DNA from: Bacteroidales bacterium
GTDB lineage: Bacteria > Bacteroidota > Bacteroidia > Bacteroidales > UBA932
NCBI GenBank assembly: GCA_024401695.1
Contig: JAKSKN010000008.1
Coordinates: 2,871 to 66,870 of the forward strand
Direction: 5' to 3'
Length of the DNA stretch: 64,000 nt
Notes under the pieces: model-generated
Database searches by the model: none
Told to the model about the DNA's origin: nothing
The model's input: only the letters and a program-made list of their open reading frames with translations
Program-made: the position numbers and the translations under genes
In this document: one piece after another, positions 3,644 to 28,125 of the stretch
Layout: the number at the start of each line of letters is the position of its first letter
Position numbering within the stretch: the first letter of the stretch is position 1

Positions 3644-4495
3644 ATGATAAAGGACATAGCACACATCGCCTTGAATCCATTGGATATGGACAAGACCGTT
3701 GAATTTCTCGACAAAGTGTTCGGATGGAAGAAAGTATTCGAACTTCATCACGACAACGGTGATCCGTGGATTATGTATATAAAGATCTGCAAAGACCATT
3801 TCCTGGAACTGTTCTATGATGCAGAGAACGACCGTGACTATGCCTATGACTTCACCAGGACCGGCTTCAACCACTTTTGCGTAACCGTCGGCGACATACG
3901 CAAGGCGCTGCAGGAAATATATGAGAAAGGCTATATCGACTCGCCTGAGCCTCAGATCGAGAAGAGTCTAAACAAGAACCTGTGGATCCACGACCCCGAC
4001 GGCAACGGCATCGAACTTCAGGAGTACGTCCCAGGATCCATACAGATGCAGAGCAACGAGGCCCCTTATCAGTTCGGACGCGAGGGCTACATAGGCATAG
4101 GCCACGCCTGTTTCGTGTGCAAGGACATCAAGGCATCGCTCGACTTCTACTGCAACAAGCTTGGGATGAAGTTGGCTGGCGTACAGGACAACGACGAGGG
4201 CAAGCCGTGGCTCCACTATGTACGCATTACCGACGGTGTATTCCTCGAGCTTATCCCGGACGGACGAGGCGAGAACCCCAACATCGGCTGGAACTCCCGC
4301 GGCTTCAACCACATCTGCCTCGAGACGGACGACCTGCTCGGGGATGTGGAGCACCTGAGGTCGATAGGCGTGGAGATCGCTCAGGAGCCCAAGACCGCGG
4401 CCGACCACAACTGGCAGGCGTGGATCAACGACCCCGACGGCAACAAGATTGAACTGATGATGCTCGCCCCGGACTCTCCGCAGAGCAAGGCATAA
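3644..4495 (+). CDS. VOC/glyoxalase family protein with two tandem domains
   Basis: Two repeats of H...E...GFNH(F/I)C...DPDGN.IEL; ATG at 3644 preferred. Confidence 0.85.
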   Translation: MIKDIAHIALNPLDMDKTVEFLDKVFGWKKVFELHHDNGDPWIMYIKICKDHFLELFYDAENDRDYAYDFTRTGFNHFCVTVGDIRKALQEIYEKGYIDSPEPQIEKSLNKNLWIHDPDGNGIELQEYVPGSIQMQSNEAPYQFGREGYIGIGHACFVCKDIKASLDFYCNKLGMKLAGVQDNDEGKPWLHYVRITDGVFLELIPDGRGENPNIGWNSRGFNHICLETDDLLGDVEHLRSIGVEIAQEPKTAADHNWQAWINDPDGNKIELMMLAPDSPQSKA

Positions 4496-17885: not shown

Positions 17886-19145
17886 TCAGATATGCTTCTT
17901 CAGGGTCAGCGTGCGGCTGATTGAGTCCGGAAGTTCGTTGTCGAAATGGGTGACGAACAGAAGGGTCTTGTGCGGTCTGGCAACGAATGCGTCGATTATC
18001 TGACGCACACGGTGGCAGTTCTGCGGATCGAGTCCGTGCATAGGCTCGTCGAGAATCAGCAGTTCCGGGTCCTTCACGAATGCGCGCGCGAGCAGGCAGA
18101 GCCGCTGCTCGCCGCTGGAAAGCTTGAGATAAGGCCTGTCAGCAAGTGCATCGATGCCGAATATCCGCATCCATTTACGGACTGTCTCAAGCTGCCCGGC
18201 GTCAGCGTGCATATACGTGCCCACCGTATCGAAAAAGCCGCTTGCAACAGCTTCCAATGCAGAGATATTCTTCTGGTAGGCGCGATGCATCTCCGGGCTT
18301 ACATAGCCTATGTGCTTCTTTATGTCCCAGATGCTCTCGCCCGAGCCGCGCTTGTGGCCGAACAACTCGATATCGCAGGCGTAGGCCTGCGGGTTGTCGG
18401 CGCATACAAGCGACAGAAGCGTCGATTTGCCGGAGCCGTTCTCGCCTCTGACAGCCCAGCACTCCCCTTCGTGCACGGTCCAGTCGAGCGACTTCAGGAT
18501 TGTCCGCTCGCCATAGCGTATGGACACACCGTTGCACTTCACTATTTCAGCATTCTCGCAGGAAGGATAGAACCTGACAGCGGAAAGGTCTTTTTGAGGC
18601 AAGGAAGCTATCGCTTCGCGGCATTCTTCAGGAAGGTCGCGGACCGGAGTGTCTTCGCCCACACGGACTACGCGCGTTATGAAGGAAGGCATAATCGCAT
18701 CGCCCGGCATCACCAGAATGATGCTTCGGCCGCCTTCTGCGGCAATCTGCGCGAGCATTTCCGTGAAATCCTCGCGTGAACGGACGTCCAGTCCGAGGTA
18801 AGGATTGTCTATTATGAGATACGTCGCGCGCGACTTGAGAGCGCGCGCTATCCTGCGCTTGCGCAGTTCTCCGCTGGAAAGCGAGAACATATCCTTGGAC
18901 GAATCGTCAAGCTCGATGAGATTCGCCAGTTCCTGGGTGTTCCACCGGAGTTGCAGATAGTACGCACCGTCGGCATCGTCGCCATAGGTATCCTTGAACG
19001 CAATATATTCAGTATCAAACGGATGCTCCCGGCAGAACGCTTCTACGACCCGGGTCTTCCCCGCACCGTTGTTCCCTGTCAGCGCCACATTCTCGCCGGG
19101 CGACACGCACAGTCGCCCGTCAGGCTGCATATGCTCAGAATTCAT
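17886..19145 (-). CDS. modF: ModF-like ABC ATP-binding protein with two ATPase domains
   Basis: GNNGAGKT and GENGSGKS Walker A, LSSGE signatures, LILDEP; start at 19145 overlaps the nudC stop. Confidence 0.8.
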   Translation of the reverse strand: MNSEHMQPDGRLCVSPGENVALTGNNGAGKTRVVEAFCREHPFDTEYIAFKDTYGDDADGAYYLQLRWNTQELANLIELDDSSKDMFSLSSGELRKRRIARALKSRATYLIIDNPYLGLDVRSREDFTEMLAQIAAEGGRSIILVMPGDAIMPSFITRVVRVGEDTPVRDLPEECREAIASLPQKDLSAVRFYPSCENAEIVKCNGVSIRYGERTILKSLDWTVHEGECWAVRGENGSGKSTLLSLVCADNPQAYACDIELFGHKRGSGESIWDIKKHIGYVSPEMHRAYQKNISALEAVASGFFDTVGTYMHADAGQLETVRKWMRIFGIDALADRPYLKLSSGEQRLCLLARAFVKDPELLILDEPMHGLDPQNCHRVRQIIDAFVARPHKTLLFVTHFDNELPDSISRTLTLKKHI

Positions 19146-19869
19146 AGTGGATGAGTTTATATGAGATTGAGCCGCGACGCGGAGAAGCGGGAATCTCACC
19201 GCGCTTGAACCAGCGGCCTTCAAGGATTTCGGATTCCTGGACTTTCAGCTCACCTGATGCATATTCGGCATAAAAGCCGCACATCAGCTGATTCGGGAAC
19301 GGCCAGCCCTGGCTGCCGGCATAGCGTATGTTCTTGATTTCAAGGCCAACTTCCTCCCGCACCTCGCGGCGGAGAGCCTCTTCAAGCGATTCGCCTGTCT
19401 CCACGAAGCCTGCAAGGCAGGCAAATATATCCTGATTGCGCAGCCTGTGGCGAAGCAGAAGCATCTCGTCACCTCTCTCGATGACGGCAATCACGCAGGG
19501 GCAGATACGCGGATAATGCACTTTGCCGCAGGACGGGCAGACGAGGGCACCTTCGCTTTCGTGCGGCTGCAGACGGACTCCGCAGGAACAGCAGAAGCGG
19601 TTCTCGGAAAGCCAGCCGGCAAGGCCCTTCATCCTGGCGGCAAGCGCCGCATCCTCTTCCCCGCCAACGGCAAAGAACTCCCGCAGCTGCATCCATTCTC
19701 CCTCGGCCGCCTCGCCCGCAATCGCGCCCACAGCGCCGCAGGAGGTGTCTTCAAATACCAATGAACAGCCTTTGAGCGACTCTTCTGTCGCTCCTTTCAT
19801 CATCTCCTTGCCCCGGAATACGAATATCTTTTTCCCGCGGGCATCAATATCATTCAGCCTGATTGCCAT
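19135..19869 (-). CDS. nudC: NAD(H) diphosphatase
   Basis: FCCSCG...CPSC..VHYPRI zinc ribbon, Nudix box GFVETGESLEEALRREVREEVG, SQGWPFP. Confidence 0.9.
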   Translation of the reverse strand: MAIRLNDIDARGKKIFVFRGKEMMKGATEESLKGCSLVFEDTSCGAVGAIAGEAAEGEWMQLREFFAVGGEEDAALAARMKGLAGWLSENRFCCSCGVRLQPHESEGALVCPSCGKVHYPRICPCVIAVIERGDEMLLLRHRLRNQDIFACLAGFVETGESLEEALRREVREEVGLEIKNIRYAGSQGWPFPNQLMCGFYAEYASGELKVQESEILEGRWFKRGEIPASPRRGSISYKLIHYEF

Positions 19870-19891: not shown

Positions 19892-21646
19892 TTATTTTAG
19901 ATTCATCTTGAGATTGTATTTCTTGAAAAGCTCGGCCCAGTCTTCTTTTGTAGCTTCCAGAGCCTCACGCGGGGCAGGCTGTATCTCCTGTGTCAGGAAA
20001 AGAGTGAATTTTCCCGGTGGAATGGTGTAAGAGATGTAGTCTCCCGGACCTGAAGCGTTCAATGCCTCCTTTGCACTGTGCTCGAAAGAGGTTATTCCGC
20101 TCCTGGAGTCCGACTCATAGAATGAATACTTTCCGCCCTTTACACCTTCTTTCACAACAACCTTATGACCCAGCTTTTCACTGATTGCAGTAAAGCCTTT
20201 CTCAAAAGAATAATCCAGCTTGACATCACCTTCCTTGGAGGACTGTGTCAGGCCCATCGCGTCCATCACACCTTCCTTATTGAAAGTTAAAGGATCGTCT
20301 TCGAATTCCACCAAATCCCAGAAATAAGTCGGGCTTATCTCAAGGAAATTCACTTCCGGGCTATCATTCATCTCAATCTTGACATACATAGGCGAGGCAT
20401 ATGTAATCTTGAGTTGTGAAGCTCCATTCTTCACCCCGGAAACCGAATATAAAGGATCCACCTTATATCCGTTAAGACTGCTTCTAACCGCATCCGCAGC
20501 CACTATCGGCTTGGATTCCGCCACAATATTGACGAATGGATTCTCACTATCGCCATTCAATCCCAGAACATCTTCAACAGTAGTCTTCCCAACGTAGTTG
20601 GAGTCGTAATTTGAAAGGTCGAAATCAGCGACAGCATTCAGATATCCGAAGTATTCGCCTTCAAACGAGGCATCACGGGGATCACCGTAATACTTAGGTA
20701 GCGGAATCAGTTTCAGAGCGCCTCCGGCAATCTTCCAGGTCACGCTGCACATCTCGCCCCTGTAGTTGAACGGAAGAGTCTTTGACTCAGGCGAAATTGC
20801 CAGCAACCATACTTTCTGATAGGCACCGGCACCCTCGCGCAAATATTTGTTTACAAGATTATAGAAGTAATCGATTCTGCACATATTCAGGAGGTGCACC
20901 CAGTTCGCACATTTCTGCTGGTCCCTTTCAAACTGCGCATACGTCATTTTGGCCAACTGTGCTACGGAAACTGCCGTACCGAGTCCCTTGCTGATTTTTC
21001 CCGCCTTGCTGAGTTCTTTCGGGTTCACTATCGTCTGGTATGCCGTAACGGAAAGGCCACCCGCATTCAAGCCGTGGTCAATTGCATCCATTGACGAATC
21101 TGTCAACGCAGAAGATGCATAACCGACTGCTGTCGAGCCTGCTCCGTAGATGGCACCGCCGACCCTTCCCATAGGAATGATCAAGGAGCCGGAGGCAATG
21201 GCCAGATTAAGCATATCATTGGCCCACTGCTCGGTAGAGAGTCTGTACTCCTTCAGCTCCGGAGTTGCCGCTATCAAGCGGGCAAGTTCGTCCCTGGTAT
21301 TGAGCCGGGAATCAATGAGCGCCCTTTTTATGCACCATTCGACAAAATCAGGCGTGATATTATAAGAGTGGACGAGTTCTCCCCTGCAATGCATCACGTT
21401 CTCCATCACAGTGACACTGTCCTGCTTTTCAAGGAATGTAAGGAAATTCATCATCTGCGTATGGTCATCCTCTCCCTCAAGCCTCATTGTGAACAAAGCC
21501 GGAATCGATGGCTCATCGGATGGCAGGCGGAGCCTGCTGTAGTCCACGGGATCATTCGGAATCGAAGGGTTGGGCGCAATCTGCGCAAATGACTGCATAA
21601 GTGCCAGAAGGAAGGCAGATATAGTTATCAGATACTTTTTCATCAT
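19892..21646 (-). CDS. Exported hypothetical protein with Gly-rich hydrophobic central segment
   Basis: Signal peptide (QSFA-Q); 584 aa; no recognised family. Confidence 0.75.
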   Translation of the reverse strand: MMKKYLITISAFLLALMQSFAQIAPNPSIPNDPVDYSRLRLPSDEPSIPALFTMRLEGEDDHTQMMNFLTFLEKQDSVTVMENVMHCRGELVHSYNITPDFVEWCIKRALIDSRLNTRDELARLIAATPELKEYRLSTEQWANDMLNLAIASGSLIIPMGRVGGAIYGAGSTAVGYASSALTDSSMDAIDHGLNAGGLSVTAYQTIVNPKELSKAGKISKGLGTAVSVAQLAKMTYAQFERDQQKCANWVHLLNMCRIDYFYNLVNKYLREGAGAYQKVWLLAISPESKTLPFNYRGEMCSVTWKIAGGALKLIPLPKYYGDPRDASFEGEYFGYLNAVADFDLSNYDSNYVGKTTVEDVLGLNGDSENPFVNIVAESKPIVAADAVRSSLNGYKVDPLYSVSGVKNGASQLKITYASPMYVKIEMNDSPEVNFLEISPTYFWDLVEFEDDPLTFNKEGVMDAMGLTQSSKEGDVKLDYSFEKGFTAISEKLGHKVVVKEGVKGGKYSFYESDSRSGITSFEHSAKEALNASGPGDYISYTIPPGKFTLFLTQEIQPAPREALEATKEDWAELFKKYNLKMNLK

Positions 21647-22629
21647 TCAGCGTTATCCAGGATCTTTATTTGCTTAAGGTACTTTTGAGCGCCATACCGA
21701 TTCTCGAGGAAAGAGTATATTGCAAGGCAGTTATATGCATTTTCCGCCTTGAACGGATTTGCAGCGAAAGCAGCTTCAAGATAGTTCTGGGCCTTGACAT
21801 AATCAGGGCTTTTACTGTCGAGGACAGCCTGCGCCATATCTCTCATCACAGTGTCATCCCAAACCGGAGCATCAATATCAAAATGCATCAGGCCTTCGCT
21901 GATAGAGCCCTGATAACGTGACTGATATGGAAGCAGTCTTTGAGACAATGCGACCAATTCAGAATATGACAATGAATCCAGAAATGAAAAATCAAATTCA
22001 AAATCCGGGAAGTACGGATTGGCATCGGCGCGACGGTAATATATCAAGGCATCGTCAGCTTCTCCCCTATAATCGTGCACAAGTCCGCGGAAATAGTCGG
22101 GCCAGGGAGAGGCAATGCAGAGGTCTCTCACTATCCACCACATTTCATTCTCTATCCTGAATACATAGAAGCCCCATTTCTCCATTCTGTCAGACAGGTT
22201 CTCATTCAAGTCATCCAATTTATCATTGACTTTTTCCATACTGGCAGTGAAGCTGCTCAGGCCTTCCATCATACCCAGAAAATCAAAACCGCCGCCGAAC
22301 GCCTCATTGATGGAATCAATGTCATCCTGATCCATATTGCGCACGTCCTCCAAAGCCTGTGCGGCGGCATCCTTTCCCGCCGCATCACGGAGATCCAGAC
22401 CTATTTCAGCGATAGCTGTACGCAGAGAGGCTATAGCCGATGCCGCCTGCCCATAAAACCAGTCCGCCTGACGCAGGCATCCGGACGATGCCCACTCGTC
22501 TCCATAGGCGGAAATCGCCTCTGTATATTCAATGAATCGTTTCTCCTCGGGATATGGCTCCTGTTGCGCCATTACGGGAAGTGACAGAGGCAACGCAATT
22601 GCGATTGCCAACAAATATGATCTCATCAT
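21643..22629 (-). CDS. Exported helical (TPR-like) hypothetical protein
   Basis: Signal peptide; A..YY..A / YLEAAFAANP TPR-like patterns; 4-nt overlaps with both neighbours. Confidence 0.7.
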   Translation of the reverse strand: MMRSYLLAIAIALPLSLPVMAQQEPYPEEKRFIEYTEAISAYGDEWASSGCLRQADWFYGQAASAIASLRTAIAEIGLDLRDAAGKDAAAQALEDVRNMDQDDIDSINEAFGGGFDFLGMMEGLSSFTASMEKVNDKLDDLNENLSDRMEKWGFYVFRIENEMWWIVRDLCIASPWPDYFRGLVHDYRGEADDALIYYRRADANPYFPDFEFDFSFLDSLSYSELVALSQRLLPYQSRYQGSISEGLMHFDIDAPVWDDTVMRDMAQAVLDSKSPDYVKAQNYLEAAFAANPFKAENAYNCLAIYSFLENRYGAQKYLKQIKILDNAE

Positions 22630-23348
22630 TTTCCGAATATTTCTCTGAAATGCCTTACGGCTATATCGCCATAGACATAACGTTTTGTGTTTTTATTTGG
22701 GATTATGGCGGTGTGGAACTGCTTCTCGTGCGAACGGGCACGCAGTTCCTCCAGCGGGCCGTAGCCAGCGTTCACCCACCTGCAACCGCGGTTATAGGCG
22801 GCTGCAGCGAGTCTCACCTGCTCCCTGATGGGCAGCGTGTCGAGGCCGTCCTGCGTATGCTCACCATTCTTGTCGAAGGAGCCGTAGTCCAGATAAAGCA
22901 TTTTCAGAAAGACCGCCAGATACACGCACTGCCACTCCTCGTCCTCGAGGCGGCTGATGCGTATGCGACGTGCGGTTTCGTTGTCCTTCGTGTCAAAATA
23001 CAGGTTATACTGCCTGGCCAGTCCGCTACGCATCCAGCGCTTCTCCAGCGTCTCCGCAAAGGATGGCTTCATCTGGAAGCGTCCGATGCTGAAGTCGCAG
23101 CCGCCGGTGCCTTTTGTCACATAAAGTGACTTCACGGCACCGGTCTCCATCTTGTCCTGGAAGATGCTGTAGCGTATGAGTTCCGGGAAAATGACGGACT
23201 CGGCGACTTCCGGCTGCACGCCGAACTGCTCCCACACCGCGCGCCATTCCGCGCGGTGCTGTTCGCAATATACGCTTGCAGCGTCATCATCCAATGATGG
23301 CGCTGCAAGCAATAGGAACAAGGAAGTGATTACAGCTTGTAGGTACAC
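22626..23348 (-). CDS. Exported lysozyme/lytic-transglycosylase-like protein
   Basis: Signal peptide; FPELIRY (candidate catalytic Glu), SIGRFQM (GxxQ), AAAAYNRG motifs in SLT/G-lysozyme order. Confidence 0.6.
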   Translation of the reverse strand: MYLQAVITSLFLLLAAPSLDDDAASVYCEQHRAEWRAVWEQFGVQPEVAESVIFPELIRYSIFQDKMETGAVKSLYVTKGTGGCDFSIGRFQMKPSFAETLEKRWMRSGLARQYNLYFDTKDNETARRIRISRLEDEEWQCVYLAVFLKMLYLDYGSFDKNGEHTQDGLDTLPIREQVRLAAAAYNRGCRWVNAGYGPLEELRARSHEKQFHTAIIPNKNTKRYVYGDIAVRHFREIFGK

Positions 23349-25192
23349 TTGATAATTCTGTACTGAACGCTGTTGTCCTGCATCTGGGCGCTTTCGACCT
23401 CCGCCCAGACAATGTATCTGCCCTGCTTCTCCCAGGCAACCGGATAGATCACGTCACCTTCAGGAAGTGTGATGAAACCGCCTTCCGCGTTGAATGTCGC
23501 GGTGCGCTTGCCGTCCATACTTGTCCAGCTGGCGCTTTGAGGCGCCTTCTCGGCAGGTGCTGCCTGCTCCTCGAAATTGTCAGGAACGAGGTTCCAGGAA
23601 CCCTTGTTGAACTGATATACCTTGCCGTTTGACTCCTTGAACATATTTCTTCCTTCAAGGACACTCACAAGATCTGAAGAAACGTAGAACTCAGGCCACC
23701 AGGCGCTCTCGCCCTCACCAATTATGAGCTGGCGGACAGTCTCCTTAATATACATATCAGGATAGTTGCTCGGGAAATCGCTGTATGCCTCGGCAAGCAC
23801 GTCACCTGCCTCTACAACGAGGTTCAGAGGGACACGCCAGAGGGCGCACTCAGGGATGATGCCTTCAGCGACAGCCTGACGCTGGATCTTGATGATGTCG
23901 CCCATACCGTTCTTGACCTTGTCGAAGCGGCCCTGAACGTCAGCGGCCCATACCTTTGCAGCCCTTTCACGATAAGTCTTGATGATCTCCATCGCCTGGA
24001 GGTAAAGAGGATCATATACCTTAGGGTCGTCGGTTGCCGCAATCTGATTGAGGATATTCTCAATCTTCCTGCGCTCAGCCTCCGAGAACTTCGCGTCGGC
24101 ATCGCTCCAGGTTCCCTGCGGCCAGGCTGCAGCAACGTCCTGCGCATACTTCTGAAGCTTCTGGTATTTTTCAAGAAGCGGAGAGAGCTGATTCTGGAAG
24201 TTCTGTACGTTCTTTGCAATCTGCATTCCGAGATCGGCTCCCGGAACAGAGCCCATTGCAGCCTGCATAAGTTCTTTCTGGAGTGCATTCTTGAATGCCT
24301 TGGCTTCCTTCTGCTCTTCAGGGCTGAGGGTCTTGATATATGCGTCGGTCTTTTTCTCGATTGCGCGGCTTGCCGCATTGTCTTCGCTGGCCATACTTGC
24401 GCGTGTGGCCTGCTTGTACTCTTCTGCAGTGCATCCGAAATACTTCCTGAGCTGTGCGTCATATTTGTCGAACACCCTGTCAGAAGCTGTTACTGCAATA
24501 TCCTGGAACTGATCTTCAGTCATATTCTCTGACTTCTTAGCCTCTTCCAGAAGCTGGTTCTCGTCTATGCCGCCAAGAATCTTGGCGCGCATACGCGCTG
24601 TCAACGCCTCTTCTTCAGCCTCGCTCAAGGTACCGTTCTTCAATGCCTCCATCTCAGCGGCAGTGATGCCGTATGCATCCTGGAGGGCCTTCTCAGCCTC
24701 GGCGCGCCACTTCTCCGTGAAGTTATCCTCGCAGGTGGTGTCCGCGTTGAGTTCCTCGGCGCGCAGGGTGACAGCCTTGACTGCCTGGTAGTACGCAATC
24801 TGGGCCTCCTCGGTAGGGTTTGCAAGCTGGCTTGCAGACGGAACCGCAGGGAATTCGTTCATAAGGGGAATCGGGAAGCTGGCGGTACTTGGGGTGACGG
24901 CGCCGCTCCATCCGAAGGAGCTGCTTCGTCTTGGCTGCAGGGTCTCCTTGCTGTCCGGCACAGGCATCTGTGAGGCTTCGGACATCTGCTTCATATTGTC
25001 GACATTGATGCCGGTCTTCTCCTCGATCTTGTCGTTGACCTTTTCGGTAACCTTCTCGGTCACTTTCTCAGAAATCTTCTCGGAAACTTTCTTTGAAACT
25101 GCATTTCCGAGTCTTCCCAGAAGGCTCTGGGCATTTGCTGCCGGGGCAGCGAGCAGCACTGCGGCTGCAAATAATACAAGTATCTTTTTCAT
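23330..25192 (-). CDS. Large exported alpha-helical hypothetical protein
   Basis: Signal peptide (ANA-Q); N-terminal (V/I)(S/T)EK tandem repeats; Ala/Glu/Lys/Gln-rich coiled-coil-like body. Confidence 0.78.
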   Translation of the reverse strand: MKKILVLFAAAVLLAAPAANAQSLLGRLGNAVSKKVSEKISEKVTEKVTEKVNDKIEEKTGINVDNMKQMSEASQMPVPDSKETLQPRRSSSFGWSGAVTPSTASFPIPLMNEFPAVPSASQLANPTEEAQIAYYQAVKAVTLRAEELNADTTCEDNFTEKWRAEAEKALQDAYGITAAEMEALKNGTLSEAEEEALTARMRAKILGGIDENQLLEEAKKSENMTEDQFQDIAVTASDRVFDKYDAQLRKYFGCTAEEYKQATRASMASEDNAASRAIEKKTDAYIKTLSPEEQKEAKAFKNALQKELMQAAMGSVPGADLGMQIAKNVQNFQNQLSPLLEKYQKLQKYAQDVAAAWPQGTWSDADAKFSEAERRKIENILNQIAATDDPKVYDPLYLQAMEIIKTYRERAAKVWAADVQGRFDKVKNGMGDIIKIQRQAVAEGIIPECALWRVPLNLVVEAGDVLAEAYSDFPSNYPDMYIKETVRQLIIGEGESAWWPEFYVSSDLVSVLEGRNMFKESNGKVYQFNKGSWNLVPDNFEEQAAPAEKAPQSASWTSMDGKRTATFNAEGGFITLPEGDVIYPVAWEKQGRYIVWAEVESAQMQDNSVQYRIIKCTYKL

Positions 25193-25231
25193 TCTAAACG
25201 ATATTATCATATGACACACGCTTCTGCAGCG

Positions 25232-26734
25232 TTATTTCTTGATGAACTCTACGCGGCGGTTCTTGGCGCGGCCTTCATCCGTGCTGTTGTCAGCGATAGG
25301 TGTGCTTGAGCCCTTACCCACAGCAGTCAGACGGTCGGCAGAGATGCCCTGAGCCACGAGTGCGGCGACAATCGCCTCGGCGCGCTGCTGGCTGAGCTTG
25401 TCATTGACAGCTGCGGAGCCGGTGTTGTCGCAGTGGCCCTGGACCTCGAACTTGATACTCGGATCCTGGTTCATAAGATCCCTGATACGGTTGATTTCAC
25501 CGGTTGACTCAGGCTTTATGGTAGCCTTGCCGGTGTCGAAGGTAATGCCGTAGGTCACAATCCTGCCCTCTCCCTGTACACGCTCGTAAAGAGGCACGGC
25601 GCCTTTTGCTATGCGGAAGTTCTTCCAGAAATAGAGGCCCGGATAGTCGCCGTCTCCCCGAAACTGAACCCACTTGGGAGCTTTCATATTCGGTATGTTG
25701 GCTACCCTCTGCTCATCGAAATATATCTTGCAGGCCCTTTTGTTGAATGAGATGGCAACGTGATGGAAACAGTTGTATTTATCGTTGTATTCAAAGTTGA
25801 AGGAACCTTCCCTGCGATCTCCGCCAGGAGTGTACCATTCATACCAGATATTGCACGGATAATTGTCCGAAACGCAGGCATCGATTTCGAGCTTTAAGGC
25901 AATCTGACCCTCATACGCCTGAACTCTGCTTAACTTATCAGTCTCAGCCAGGTAAATTGTATAGTTATTGATGCCTACACCTACATTCGGATGATTCTTT
26001 TCGTAAGTGCTCCTGTCATACAAATACACATCGAATTCGATGGTGAATGCATCAGTAAGGTATGGCTCGTCGAAAAGAGGGGTGAATATGCCGTCTTCCG
26101 AGCTGATGCACTTGACTCCGTCAATCGTGACAATCTGGCAGTTGCCCTGGAAGAGATCCATCCTTGACGGGAATTCGCCCATCTGCTCGCCCTCAAGATT
26201 GTCGTCGTGAATGATTTCGTCTCCGGCCACGAAGTCGTAGTTGTTCCATACCACTGCGGATGCTGCCGGCTTCTTAGGCTCGGAAACCTGACCGCCGGCC
26301 GAAGGCTTCCTGGCCCCGCAGTCTGCGCAGAAATTGCCGGTATTACCGGTCTTGCCGCACTCAGGGCAGTTCCAGCCGCTCTGGGCGGATGCTGATGATC
26401 CGGTTCCAGGCTTCTTCGCGCCACAATCGTCGCAGAAATTGCCGGTGTTGCCTGTCTTGCCGCACTCAGGGCAGGTCCAGCTGCCGGCTGCAGGGGCAGA
26501 TTGTGTCTGCTGGTTGTCGGCAGGAGCCTCTTGTCCGGCCTCTTTTTTATCTTTCTTTGAGAACAGACCTTCTACAGCGTCAAACGCCTTGTCGACCGCC
26601 CTGTCGGCGGCAGATTCAGTCCTGGACACAGCCTTGTCAAGCGCTTTTTGTCCGAGCTTCTCCAAAAAGCTCTGTGCATTTGCGCTTGAGCATACGAAAG
26701 CAAGCGCCGCGGTGATGATAAGTATTCTTTTCAT
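25232..26734 (-). CDS. OmpA-family peptidoglycan-binding protein with two N-terminal zinc-ribbon repeats
   Basis: Signal peptide; 2x W.CPECGKTGNTGNFC.DCG; C-terminal VQGHCDNTG..LSQQRA..NRRVEF. Confidence 0.88.
   Translation of the reverse strand: MKRILIITAALAFVCSSANAQSFLEKLGQKALDKAVSRTESAADRAVDKAFDAVEGLFSKKDKKEAGQEAPADNQQTQSAPAAGSWTCPECGKTGNTGNFCDDCGAKKPGTGSSASAQSGWNCPECGKTGNTGNFCADCGARKPSAGGQVSEPKKPAASAVVWNNYDFVAGDEIIHDDNLEGEQMGEFPSRMDLFQGNCQIVTIDGVKCISSEDGIFTPLFDEPYLTDAFTIEFDVYLYDRSTYEKNHPNVGVGINNYTIYLAETDKLSRVQAYEGQIALKLEIDACVSDNYPCNIWYEWYTPGGDRREGSFNFEYNDKYNCFHHVAISFNKRACKIYFDEQRVANIPNMKAPKWVQFRGDGDYPGLYFWKNFRIAKGAVPLYERVQGEGRIVTYGITFDTGKATIKPESTGEINRIRDLMNQDPSIKFEVQGHCDNTGSAAVNDKLSQQRAEAIVAALVAQGISADRLTAVGKGSSTPIADNSTDEGRAKNRRVEFIKK
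26304..26479 (-). repeat. Intragenic tandem duplication (105-bp period) encoding CxxC-x-CxxC ribbons
   Basis: 26407-26479 and 26304-26374 encode nearly the same peptide with synonymous differences. Confidence 0.85.
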
Positions 26735-26775
26735 ATGATCATTGGTTTTTGTTTCAAAAAGTGAACATAAACACG

Positions 26776-26821
26776 CAAATTTACCCATTCAACAATCAAA
26801 TAACACCACCCTTATGGGTGG
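26776..26821 (-). promoter_or_regulatory. Promoter of the ompA-like operon with upstream 6-4-6 palindrome
   Basis: TAAATTTG at 26783-26776; CCACCC-TTAT-GGGTGG at 26806-26821 where a -33 TTTG would be expected. Confidence 0.55.
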
Positions 26822-26889
26822 AACAACAGAGTACATAAGCGTCAAAAACAAAAAAAAATGGTATCTTTACAACAGACTTGATCGATATC

Positions 26890-28125
26890 ATGAAAGGCAA
26901 ATTCATTTCCGGCGCAATTGCCGCACTGCTGCTCTCCTGCCAGATTCTGGATGCAGACAATTACATTGACCACCGGGGCCACAACGTGGACTCGCTGGAA
27001 AGGGTCGTCGCGGCCTGGAGCGACGACAGGATTGCACAGGCAGGCGACGAGGAGCTTGCCGGTCTCAACCGGGACTGGCGCGAGCTTATGCTGGGATATC
27101 TGCAAACAGACACGGGCCGATCAATGTCATTTGCGCGGAAAGCGCTCCGGATGGGCCTGGACAAGGACTGGAAAGTCGCTGTCTGGGATGCCTCAAAGGT
27201 CATCGGGCAGCACCATTGGCACGGCGAGAGGTACGACAGCGCGGCTTTCTACTACAACATTGCCGTTGATGCCATAGAAAAGATGGAGGTCGGCGCGGTA
27301 GATGCAGCGCATCCGGAAGGACTTTCGCAGTTCGACATAGACAACGCCCGCAGCGCAATGCTGGGCACGATGGGCAACCTCTACAGCATGCAGGACAGCA
27401 TAGACCTGGCGATGTCATACTACGCCAGAGCCGGCGAAATCTTCAAGCAGTACGGATGGAACAGCAGCATCGCGTGCCTGCAGTACAACATCGGCGAGAC
27501 CTGGCGCGAAAATGGCGAATCCGCAAAGGCTGACAAGGCATTCGAGGAAGGGCTGACTTATGCAAAGGAGGCCGGCGACTCCCTCTGGATCGCCGCAAAC
27601 AAGGCCGGCATCGGCAGGGTCGCGCTCGAGCGCGGACGCCTCCGCAAGGCTATCAGGTCCCTTGATGAAGCCAACCAATATTATGAGGCGTACGATGACC
27701 AGGAATTCGCCGCGCTTCTTGAGAATCTGGACTATACCAACCAGGTGCTCCGCCTCCAGAAAAGACAGGCTACAATAGGGATGATTTCTGCCCTGGCAGC
27801 ACTTGTTCTGTTGATAATCAGCATATTCGCCATTTACAGGATGGAGAAGTTCAAGAAACATAATTCACAGACAGCAGAAGTCCTCGAGGAGGCCATAGGC
27901 GAAATAGGCACAAACACCGCTGAAGCTGACATAAAGCTCAGCGAGCGCGAGGCGGAGATATTGAAACTGATAGCCGACGGCCTGGTCAACAAGCAGATAG
28001 CAGACAAGTTGTGCCTTAGCCCCGAGACGGTCAAATGGTACCGCAAGAAACTTCTCGCAAAATTCAACACCACCACATCCTCGGCGCTCATTTCCGAAGC
28101 GTTCAAGAGAGGATTCCTTAATTGA
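26890..28125 (+). CDS. Transmembrane one-component regulator: exported TPR domain, TM helix, LuxR-type HTH
   Basis: Signal peptide, TPR helices, TM (MISALAALVLLIISIFAIY), LSEREAEILKLIADGLVNKQIADKLCLSPETVKWYRKKL. Confidence 0.88.
   Translation: MKGKFISGAIAALLLSCQILDADNYIDHRGHNVDSLERVVAAWSDDRIAQAGDEELAGLNRDWRELMLGYLQTDTGRSMSFARKALRMGLDKDWKVAVWDASKVIGQHHWHGERYDSAAFYYNIAVDAIEKMEVGAVDAAHPEGLSQFDIDNARSAMLGTMGNLYSMQDSIDLAMSYYARAGEIFKQYGWNSSIACLQYNIGETWRENGESAKADKAFEEGLTYAKEAGDSLWIAANKAGIGRVALERGRLRKAIRSLDEANQYYEAYDDQEFAALLENLDYTNQVLRLQKRQATIGMISALAALVLLIISIFAIYRMEKFKKHNSQTAEVLEEAIGEIGTNTAEADIKLSEREAEILKLIADGLVNKQIADKLCLSPETVKWYRKKLLAKFNTTTSSALISEAFKRGFLN

Follow-up and report, generated by a model that had tools for sequence, protein, structure and literature searches.

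We describe here a locus at positions 19892-28125 of the window, a 64,000-nt stretch of contig JAKSKN010000008.1 from a Bacteroidales bacterium (assembly GCA_024401695.1), in which five minus-strand genes (g1 to g5) face a divergent gene for a membrane-bound regulator (R). With a probability of roughly 0.42, we read this locus as an inducible module for remodelling the cell wall in the periplasm, to which exported add-ons that vary between strains are attached, because the synteny of its genes, the conservation and spacing of a candidate operator, the OmpA_C domain of g1, the lysozyme-like character of g3 and the export of the products all point in this direction. In the proposed mechanism, the TPR domain of R would sense an envelope signal, and the helix-turn-helix of R would then bind a palindrome and activate transcription of the operon. 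The g1 protein would dock on peptidoglycan, g2 would serve as partner or scaffold for g3, and g3 would cut or bind glycan strands locally so that the wall is remodelled, while g4 and g5 would be strain-specific exported passengers of the operon. The features of the locus are as follows (ORF, open reading frame; aa, amino acids).

26878-28125, plus strand: R, predicted one-component membrane regulator; likely start ATG 26890, giving a 411-aa product (Pfam coordinates refer to the 415-aa ORF)
26806-26821, strand not applicable: candidate operator, palindrome CCACCC-TTAT-GGGTGG, read directly from the sequence
26776-26783, minus strand: Bacteroides-type -7 box TAAATTTG for g1-g5, read directly from the sequence
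25232-26788, minus strand: g1, exported protein with OmpA_C domain; likely start ATG 26734 (MKRIL...)
23330-25219, minus strand: g2, core protein of ~620 aa; likely start 25192, giving the 620-aa product P0129 in databases
22626-23348, minus strand: g3, putative cryptic lysozyme-like or lytic-transglycosylase-like protein of 240 aa; GTG start
21643-22629, minus strand: g4, accessory exported helical protein, from the ORF listing
19892-21646, minus strand: g5, accessory exported protein, from the ORF listing

The operon g1-g5 spans 19892-26788, and both the -7 box and the palindrome are sited between R and g1. The genes are closely packed: g1 and g2 are spaced by 12-40 nt, g2 and g3 overlap by 19 nt, and the g3/g4 and g4/g5 overlaps are 4 nt each. 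On this arrangement, g3 appears to be translationally coupled to g2, and g4 to g5. Classical signal peptides were found in g1, g2, g4 and g5, with a cleavage site of the form A-x-A directly before Gln. The N-terminus of g3 is a hydrophobic helix without a basic n-region and is a probable signal peptide or anchor. All products of the operon thus appear to be exported, and would therefore act in the periplasm or beyond. An earlier sequence-only reading of this DNA had described five co-oriented, tightly packed or overlapping genes, a divergent transmembrane LuxR regulator, a -7 promoter and a 6-4-6 palindrome, all of which were confirmed; its statement that all five proteins carry signal peptides holds in the classical sense for four of them and only as a probability for g3.

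The conserved unit was delimited by synteny. A g3-profile scan of GTDB species genomes yielded at least 539 confirmed loci, 78 of which were kept for analysis; the window's six proteins were placed on these 78 loci by tblastn, and all neighbouring ORFs were clustered. Only four families recur around g3, namely g2 (72 loci), g3 itself (at least 67), g1 (58) and R, and most of the loci show the order R(divergent)-g1-g2-g3. Parabacteroides goldsteinii DSM 19448, Prevotella sp. MA2016 and Xylanibacter ruminicola are among the carriers, and most loci carry no accessory genes. The conserved module, as judged from gene order, would be R together with g1-g2-g3. The idea of a five-gene functional unit was consequently given up, with g4 and g5 becoming a rare accessory pair, although the gene-neighbourhood check did find the genes co-occurring elsewhere, the opposite of what the sequence-only reading had named as its refutation.

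Within this unit, g2 always lies directly upstream of g3 and usually overlaps it. The two genes occur without g1 in loci L017, L030, L067 and L068, and the g3 homologue of other Bacteroidia orders is preceded by a shorter g2-like gene (386-388 aa) with the same AQ-G-L-L-x-K motif after its signal peptide. Because the pair is found without g1 and in these other orders, g2-g3 appears to be the oldest and tightest core. The module was present in 30 of 301 Bacteroidales genomes (~10%) and in 3 of 25 genomes of this genus, and one locus (L008) is 93-100% identical to the window, on which ground the genome is probably that of a Candidatus Cryptobacteroides. Tblastn searches with g3 against a phage collection and with g2 against a plasmid collection gave no match, and thus no sign of a phage or plasmid origin. 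In NCBI, the copies of cultured P. goldsteinii and Prevotella/Xylanibacter are all named "hypothetical protein", and full-text literature searches yielded no description of the module.

The regulatory link between R and the operon is the best-supported part of the finding. The exact palindrome CCACCC-N4-GGGTGG occurs once in the 2.66-Mb genome, against 0.23 copies expected. Among the 53 related loci with enough upstream sequence for a palindrome scan, 26 show the palindrome, with no more than one mismatch, upstream of the operon, and the remaining 720 kb of those loci contain a single such site. In 22 of 31 distinct sites, the last base of the TTTG in the -7 box lies exactly 30 nt past the palindrome. 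Being unique in the genome, conserved upstream of the operon and held at this fixed distance from the -7 box, the palindrome very probably serves as the operator of R. Meanwhile, its arms are conserved in sequence and its 4-nt centre varies (TTAT, GAAC, AAAC, TTTG, TTTT, TTTA, ATTT), which argues for recognition by a protein and not for a hairpin. The palindrome accompanies the regulator: loci without the regulator, for example those of the X. ruminicola group, are also without the palindrome.

In the window, the -7 box lies 42 nt upstream of the g1 ATG at 26734, and the centre of the palindrome lies ~38 nt upstream of the end of the box, near -43, where a -33 element would normally sit. Such a geometry, we infer, is what activator-dependent promoters typically show. 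A canonical -33 element at 26797-26800 was considered and rejected, because it is only 13 nt from the -7 box and hence too close, so that the operator would take the -33 position. The palindrome was likewise rejected as an intrinsic terminator, because of its place in a divergent promoter region and because the arms are conserved as sequence, beyond mere pairing. With a conserved operator at a fixed distance from the promoter, the earlier suggestion of an inducible module is plausible. A full-text literature search did not find the CCACCC-N4-GGGTGG operator or its target operon. As a separate observation, two operator copies 21 bp apart, i.e. two helical turns, are present at L005:6304-6340, L012:4566-4602 and L026 (~4376-4412), which suggests cooperative binding there; the window has a single copy.

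The R protein is ordered as a signal/anchor helix, a periplasmic TPR sensor, one transmembrane helix and a cytoplasmic LuxR/GerE helix-turn-helix. The TPR domain must be periplasmic because the DNA-binding domain must be cytoplasmic. Pfam matches were obtained for GerE (E 5.8e-16), TPR_12 (E 4e-8) and TPR_MalT (E 3e-5); at 58.3 bits against a cut-off of 23.5 (PF00196, residues 354-406), the GerE match places R in the LuxR/GerE family. The single strongly hydrophobic segment covers residues 292-321 of the 411-aa product (~296-325 in the 415-aa ORF). No Pfam match to a Response_reg receiver domain was found in the window's R, which is therefore not classed as a NarL/FixJ response regulator. Homologues of R, 37-46% identical, stand divergent from and upstream of g1 in most loci of the clade.

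The closest comparison for R is with the FimS-type TPR-sensor two-component systems of Bacteroidota. R likewise has a periplasmic TPR sensor, whose TPR part is matched by the NCBIfam FimS model (E 6.5e-7), and it shares the LuxR/GerE helix-turn-helix output of the NarL/LuxR-type regulators that accompany FimS-type kinases. It differs in that the sensor is joined through one transmembrane helix to the DNA-binding domain, with no kinase and no receiver. ToxR is a comparable membrane-bound one-component regulator. In Prevotellaceae loci, and only there, a TPR-HisKA_3-HATPase kinase and a Response_reg-GerE regulator take the place of the fused R (L081:2346-4843, L074:1012-3672, L082:2285-4776). 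The TPR part of this kinase is 28-30% identical to R; L081 and L082 retain the unchanged CCACCC-N4-GGGTGG despite the split sensor, and L074 has a variant palindrome. The fused and split forms thus appear to be a natural one-component/two-component pair of one circuit. It should be further mentioned that at least 13 loci (e.g. L009:4555-4750 and L005:6395-6610) carry a stand-alone GerE gene of 64-71 aa between the operator/promoter and g1, which is absent from the window. Its product might be a soluble co-regulator or anti-activator at the palindrome.

The g1 protein consists, in order, of a signal peptide, an amphipathic helix, two CxxC-N9-CxxC repeats, a concanavalin/LamG-like domain and OmpA_C. 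The OmpA_C match (PF00691, residues 416-511, E 4.4e-24) reached 85.1 bits where the cut-off is 27.2, and the translation shows the peptidoglycan-contact motif NDKLSQQRAEAIV, of the pattern N-x-x-L-S-x-x-R-A. Hence g1 belongs to the OmpA_C family, which bears out the peptidoglycan anchor of the sequence-only reading, and because of this domain the protein must be periplasmic. The match to LamG_3 and 3-keto-disaccharide-hydrolase-like models is weak in the window copy and scores better in homologues. As for the zinc ribbons claimed earlier for g1, the two repeats are indeed present but their zinc-ribbon-like Pfam scores are weak (E 0.01). After the signal peptide, g1 and g2 share the motif AQ[GS][FL]Lx[KR]L, which no other protein of the genome has.

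Compared with the known OmpA_C-type proteins (Pal, YiaD, YfiB, MotB and PorE of the type IX secretion system, T9SS), the C-terminal 100 residues of g1 form the same clear OmpA_C domain with the contact motif. However, g1 lacks a lipobox, a beta-barrel and a transmembrane stator helix, and instead carries the amphipathic N-terminal helix, the zinc-ribbon repeats and the LamG/ConA-like domain. All NCBIfam equivalog models scored far below their cut-offs on g1. The NCBIfam models TssL, DotU, PorE and TraB and the PADLOC ZorB models matched only its OmpA_C domain, the NCBIfam models far below their cut-offs and the PADLOC models having none. No core component of known secretion or defence systems (T9SS, the type VI and type IV secretion systems T6SS and T4SS/Tra, and Zorya) was found above cut-off at the locus. 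This agrees with the earlier failure to recognise a named secretion system, since no T6SS, T9SS or Tra model reached its cut-off; nothing points to an envelope-spanning machine, which had also been proposed, as no inner- or outer-membrane component and no ATPase is present. The tandem repeats of g1, at window positions 26260-26500 (residues ~97-165), deserve a remark of their own, as zinc ribbons are unusual in the periplasm. They are lineage-specific: the homologue in L002 has one, and the Prevotella and Parabacteroides copies have none.

The g3 protein belongs to no family in Pfam, NCBIfam, PADLOC or PHROGs, and neither do its homologues (713; 773 clusters at 50% identity) have a Pfam family. 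With the Pfam SLT model PF01464, g3 gave no match at E ≤ 0.1 and stayed below the family threshold, and one of 61 relatives was matched at E 0.089; the three genuine SLT proteins of the genome score E 1e-22 to 1e-26 on the same model. Its AlphaFold2 model (predicted local distance difference test, pLDDT, 89.8) is all-helical. When this model was compared with the PDB by Foldseek, 21 of the 25 best matches were lytic transglycosylases or g-type lysozymes, with E ~0.6-2 and template-modelling (TM) scores of 0.3-0.5, the neighbours being MltE, MltC, MltF, EtgA, goose-type lysozyme and the g-lysozymes of cod and salmon. A deep profile of g3 gave goose-type lysozyme as its sole match among PDB sequences (E 0.07), aligned across the AYNxG region. 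Hhalign against 20 genuine SLT domains of this genus gave E 0.003-0.008, compared with 0.34 for a reversed decoy. The alignment is collinear: GxxQMxP, AYNxG and a later P-x-x-T-R-x-Y are matched, and the SLT Glu-Ser falls on E68-T69.

In alignments of 32 close relatives and of 61 diverse relatives (~31% mean identity), residues P55, E56, S87, G89 and Q92 (K94 also) are invariant, and E68, A184, Y185 and N186 are nearly so. The segments S87-I-G89-x-F91-Q92-M93-K94-P95 and A184-Y185-N186-x-G188, invariant or nearly so, stand in the order of the SLT motifs. Two candidates for the catalytic Glu emerge, P55-E56 being invariant in the 61 sequences and E68-T69, at near-canonical spacing to G89, being present in at least 90% of them. 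Because these lines of evidence, each weak by itself, agree with one another, we consider it quite likely that g3 has a lysozyme-like fold. Of the peptidoglycan-cutting enzyme put forward by the sequence-only reading, the fold is therefore backed by convergent though weak evidence from Foldseek, the deep profile, hhalign and the motifs, while the Pfam threshold was not reached.

With family-1 lytic transglycosylases/GH23 (MltE, MltC, Slt70) and goose-type lysozymes, g3 shares the all-helical build and, in the same order, the conserved Glu residues, G-x-x-Q-M-x-P, A-Y-N-x-G and P-x-x-T-[RK]-x-Y. It differs from them by an extra N-terminal helical segment, the ambiguous Glu (E56 or E68), the sub-threshold Pfam score and its constant coupling to a partner gene of ~390-650 aa. 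The specialised lytic transglycosylases EtgA (type III secretion), VirB1 and FlgJ resemble it in that here too a wall-cutting-type protein is encoded with dedicated partners and a peptidoglycan binder; unlike those machines, none of the 78 loci has genes for secretion, a flagellum or a pilus within it or nearby. SleB-YpeB is an enzyme-plus-partner pair comparable to g3-g2, to be taken as a lead only. A metagenomic protein of 597 aa (P0261) has a g3-type domain at residues 21-186 fused to, or miscalled with, a CotH kinase domain (PF08757, E 5.6e-32).

The partner g2 is built of a signal peptide, a Lys/Glu-rich amphipathic helix, a conserved linear motif, a helical domain (~100-470) and a beta domain (~480-620) that ends in a near-invariant KCTYKL. 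Its AlphaFold2 model (pLDDT 77.5) shows a disordered N-terminus after the signal peptide, a conserved linear segment at ~85-125 and the long helical domain, in line with the earlier description of a long helical protein. Three Cys are invariant among the relatives, which fits an extracytoplasmic protein. There are at least 220 homologues of g2. No family was found for it in Pfam, NCBIfam or PADLOC, the same result being obtained when 32 relatives were scanned singly, and PHROGs gave only a match to the short N-terminal helix. Foldseek searches with the g2 model found nothing of meaningful TM-score in the PDB or BFVD, and a START/Bet v1-like identity of the beta domain was rejected at TM ≤ 0.24. 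Among PDB sequences, a profile search gave a single weak match, to apolipophorin-III (E 4e-4), which may reflect amphipathic-helix composition. In some genomes g2 appears to be interrupted: at L077:6290-7906 (X. ruminicola D31d) it is annotated with 437 aa and its N-terminal part lies in a separate stretch, and at G010:C40:3204-5069 it contains an in-frame TAA. These copies may be pseudogenes or assembly errors.

The remaining two genes behave differently. The g4 protein is exported and helical with a TPR-like C-terminus. In g5, also exported, an N-terminal motif (DPVDYSRLRLP) and a globular part are conserved, and a stretch rich in Gly/Ala/Ser is variable. No family was found for either in Pfam, NCBIfam, PADLOC or PHROGs, and none of 11 g5 members scanned singly on Pfam matched; g5 also had no match among PDB sequences. 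Only 8 homologues of g5 were found among 5.8 billion proteins, and it was absent from 40 related genomes searched. The homologues of g4 and g5 are always paired and were found only within this locus type, in a narrow subclade (L002, L021, L023, L031, L110 and L111). Compared with L031, the nearest relative, the flanking NUDIX and ABC genes are 94% and 90% identical, g2 90% and g3 95%, whereas g1 is only 51%, g4 30% and g5 25% identical. In L031 the g4-g5 pair also sits elsewhere, between g1 and g2 together with two other genes, and a different exported protein follows g3. In other clades, WG-repeat proteins are found at differing positions of the locus (7 loci). Since g4-g5 vary and relocate and these clades carry WG-repeat proteins at varying positions, the locus appears to be a hot spot for variable exported genes, with g4-g5 a rare, fast-diverging accessory pair that we infer to lie outside the core mechanism.

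The Gly-rich stretch of g5 (~residues 130-235) is real, as had been noted earlier, and is the most indel-rich and least conserved part of the protein. The hydrophobic character ascribed to it never reaches transmembrane grade: beyond the signal peptide, g5 has no hydrophobic 19-mer of that grade. We therefore rejected the earlier proposal of a membrane-inserting protein, for which no signature was seen; the hydrophobicity falls short, and it is the Gly-rich stretch that varies. Family scans of g4, g5 and their relatives revealed no toxin, pore-forming or enzyme domain such as polymorphic toxins would have. No consistent small immunity gene lies downstream of g5; the conserved NUDIX hydrolase gene follows it, and the downstream genes differ between loci. 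On neither count does anything indicate the antibacterial role once suggested for the operon. The four genes between g1 and g2 in L031 (L031:1710-6151) encode a lipoprotein, a 312-aa protein and the diverged g4 and g5. The 312-aa protein lacks a signal peptide; its N-terminus is amphipathic as in g1 and g2, and its double zinc ribbons score strongly (DZR, E 6e-10).

Several observations weigh against a wall remodelling module. The g3 protein fails the Pfam SLT model, and each of its similarity scores to known lytic transglycosylases is individually non-significant. Its catalytic Glu appears ambiguous, as E56 is invariant but hhalign puts the SLT Glu-Ser on E68-T69. As g2 has no informative relative, its role as a scaffold is a guess. 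The patchy presence of the module seems to fit an accessory function better than core wall maintenance, and the 51% identity of g1 between near-identical strains, together with the turnover of the accessory genes, suggests a diversifying pressure which pure housekeeping remodelling would leave unexplained. Some of these points feed an alternative that we regard as unlikely, in which g3 would be a catalytically dead lysozyme-fold glycan binder and would form, with g1 and g2, a stress-induced link between outer membrane and peptidoglycan through the amphipathic N-terminal helices of g1 and g2. The far divergence of g3 from active SLT enzymes, its non-canonical spacing from Glu to GxxQ, the helix motif common to g1 and g2 and no other protein of the genome, the weak apolipophorin-III-like match of g2, which would indicate lipid-surface-binding helices, and the OmpA_C family membership of g1 would all suit such a tether. 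Conservation of E56, E68, GxxQ and AYNxG over 61 sequences, however, exceeds the usual need of a pure binder, and there is neither a lipobox nor a beta-barrel for anchoring in the outer membrane.

The variable genes can be given more weight than in the remodelling interpretation. If the wall is opened locally by the core so that variable cargo (g4-g5 here, WG-repeat proteins or lipoproteins elsewhere) is released or positioned to act on competitors, phages or a host surface, it would be understandable that the accessory exported genes differ between loci and shift position (g4 30% and g5 25% identical to L031 against 90% for g2 and 95% for g3), that WG-repeat proteins take different positions in 7 loci, that g4-g5 homologues are confined to this locus type and that the phyletic pattern is patchy and accessory-like. 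We nevertheless hold this to be improbable: g4 and g5 lack a toxin, pore-forming or enzyme domain, g5 lacks a membrane-grade segment, no small immunity gene consistently follows, no outer-membrane channel, ATPase or known secretion component is present, and most loci have no accessory genes at all. Quite improbable, too, is that the module builds or anchors a surface structure in which g4-g5 and the variable middle of g1 are surface- or envelope-exposed and diversify under selection as targets, for instance of phages or the host's immunity. The extreme divergence of g1, g4 and g5 between near-identical genomes, the lectin-like domain of g1 and its lineage-specific zinc-ribbon insertions speak for it; yet outer-membrane targeting by a lipoprotein export signal, a T9SS C-terminal domain or a beta-barrel is missing, and OmpA_C puts g1 in the periplasm. 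That the genes are merely neighbours with no functional link is hardly credible: four of the five proteins have no annotated family, but the gene order is conserved across Bacteroidales families with the g2-g3 pair reaching other orders, start and stop codons overlap, and the shared operator is conserved.

A bolder form of the remodelling interpretation, which we consider a long shot, is a 'wall gate', in which a cryptic lytic transglycosylase held on a novel helical partner (g2-g3 with g1) would open peptidoglycan on demand and, in some lineages, let strain-specific exported proteins cross or be installed. If true, it would amount to an accessory system for export or competition of a new kind, with an on-switch that is defined by TPR sensor, LuxR domain and CCACCC-N4-GGGTGG operator. 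Even apart from this, the module is common in animal-gut Bacteroidales, with at least 539 loci among GTDB species genomes and every named copy a "hypothetical protein". It offers a directly testable circuit, in which a TPR sensor in the periplasm is combined with LuxR-type output and a candidate operator of 16 bp at a fixed position, in both fused and split forms. It may also represent a new, sequence-cryptic branch of the lysozyme/lytic-transglycosylase superfamily with an obligate partner that has no fold match. Because cultured P. goldsteinii and X. ruminicola carry copies, the module is open to genetic and biochemical work. Between near-identical genomes g1, g4 and g5 turn over rapidly, which points to some selective pressure.

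Some minor observations concern the surroundings of the locus. In the window, a NUDIX/NADH-pyrophosphatase-like gene begins 22 nt past the g5 stop and is overlapped by an ABC-ATPase gene on the same strand (17886-19869). No terminator-like site was seen between these genes, so the transcript may read through; the NUDIX-ABC pair also flanks the locus in L031, but in no other loci. In P. goldsteinii DSM 19448 (L070:4968-5819), g1 and g2 are separated by a Bro-N gene (E 1e-12) and an ORF of 102 aa, an insertion that looks like a phage- or mobile-element-type one. Some copies of the module have further cell-wall genes beside them. A YkuD L,D-transpeptidase gene follows g5 at L111:6387-6845. In one clade (L044:11825-13820), downstream ORFs have N-termini that resemble glucosaminidase and MltG, as judged by eye.

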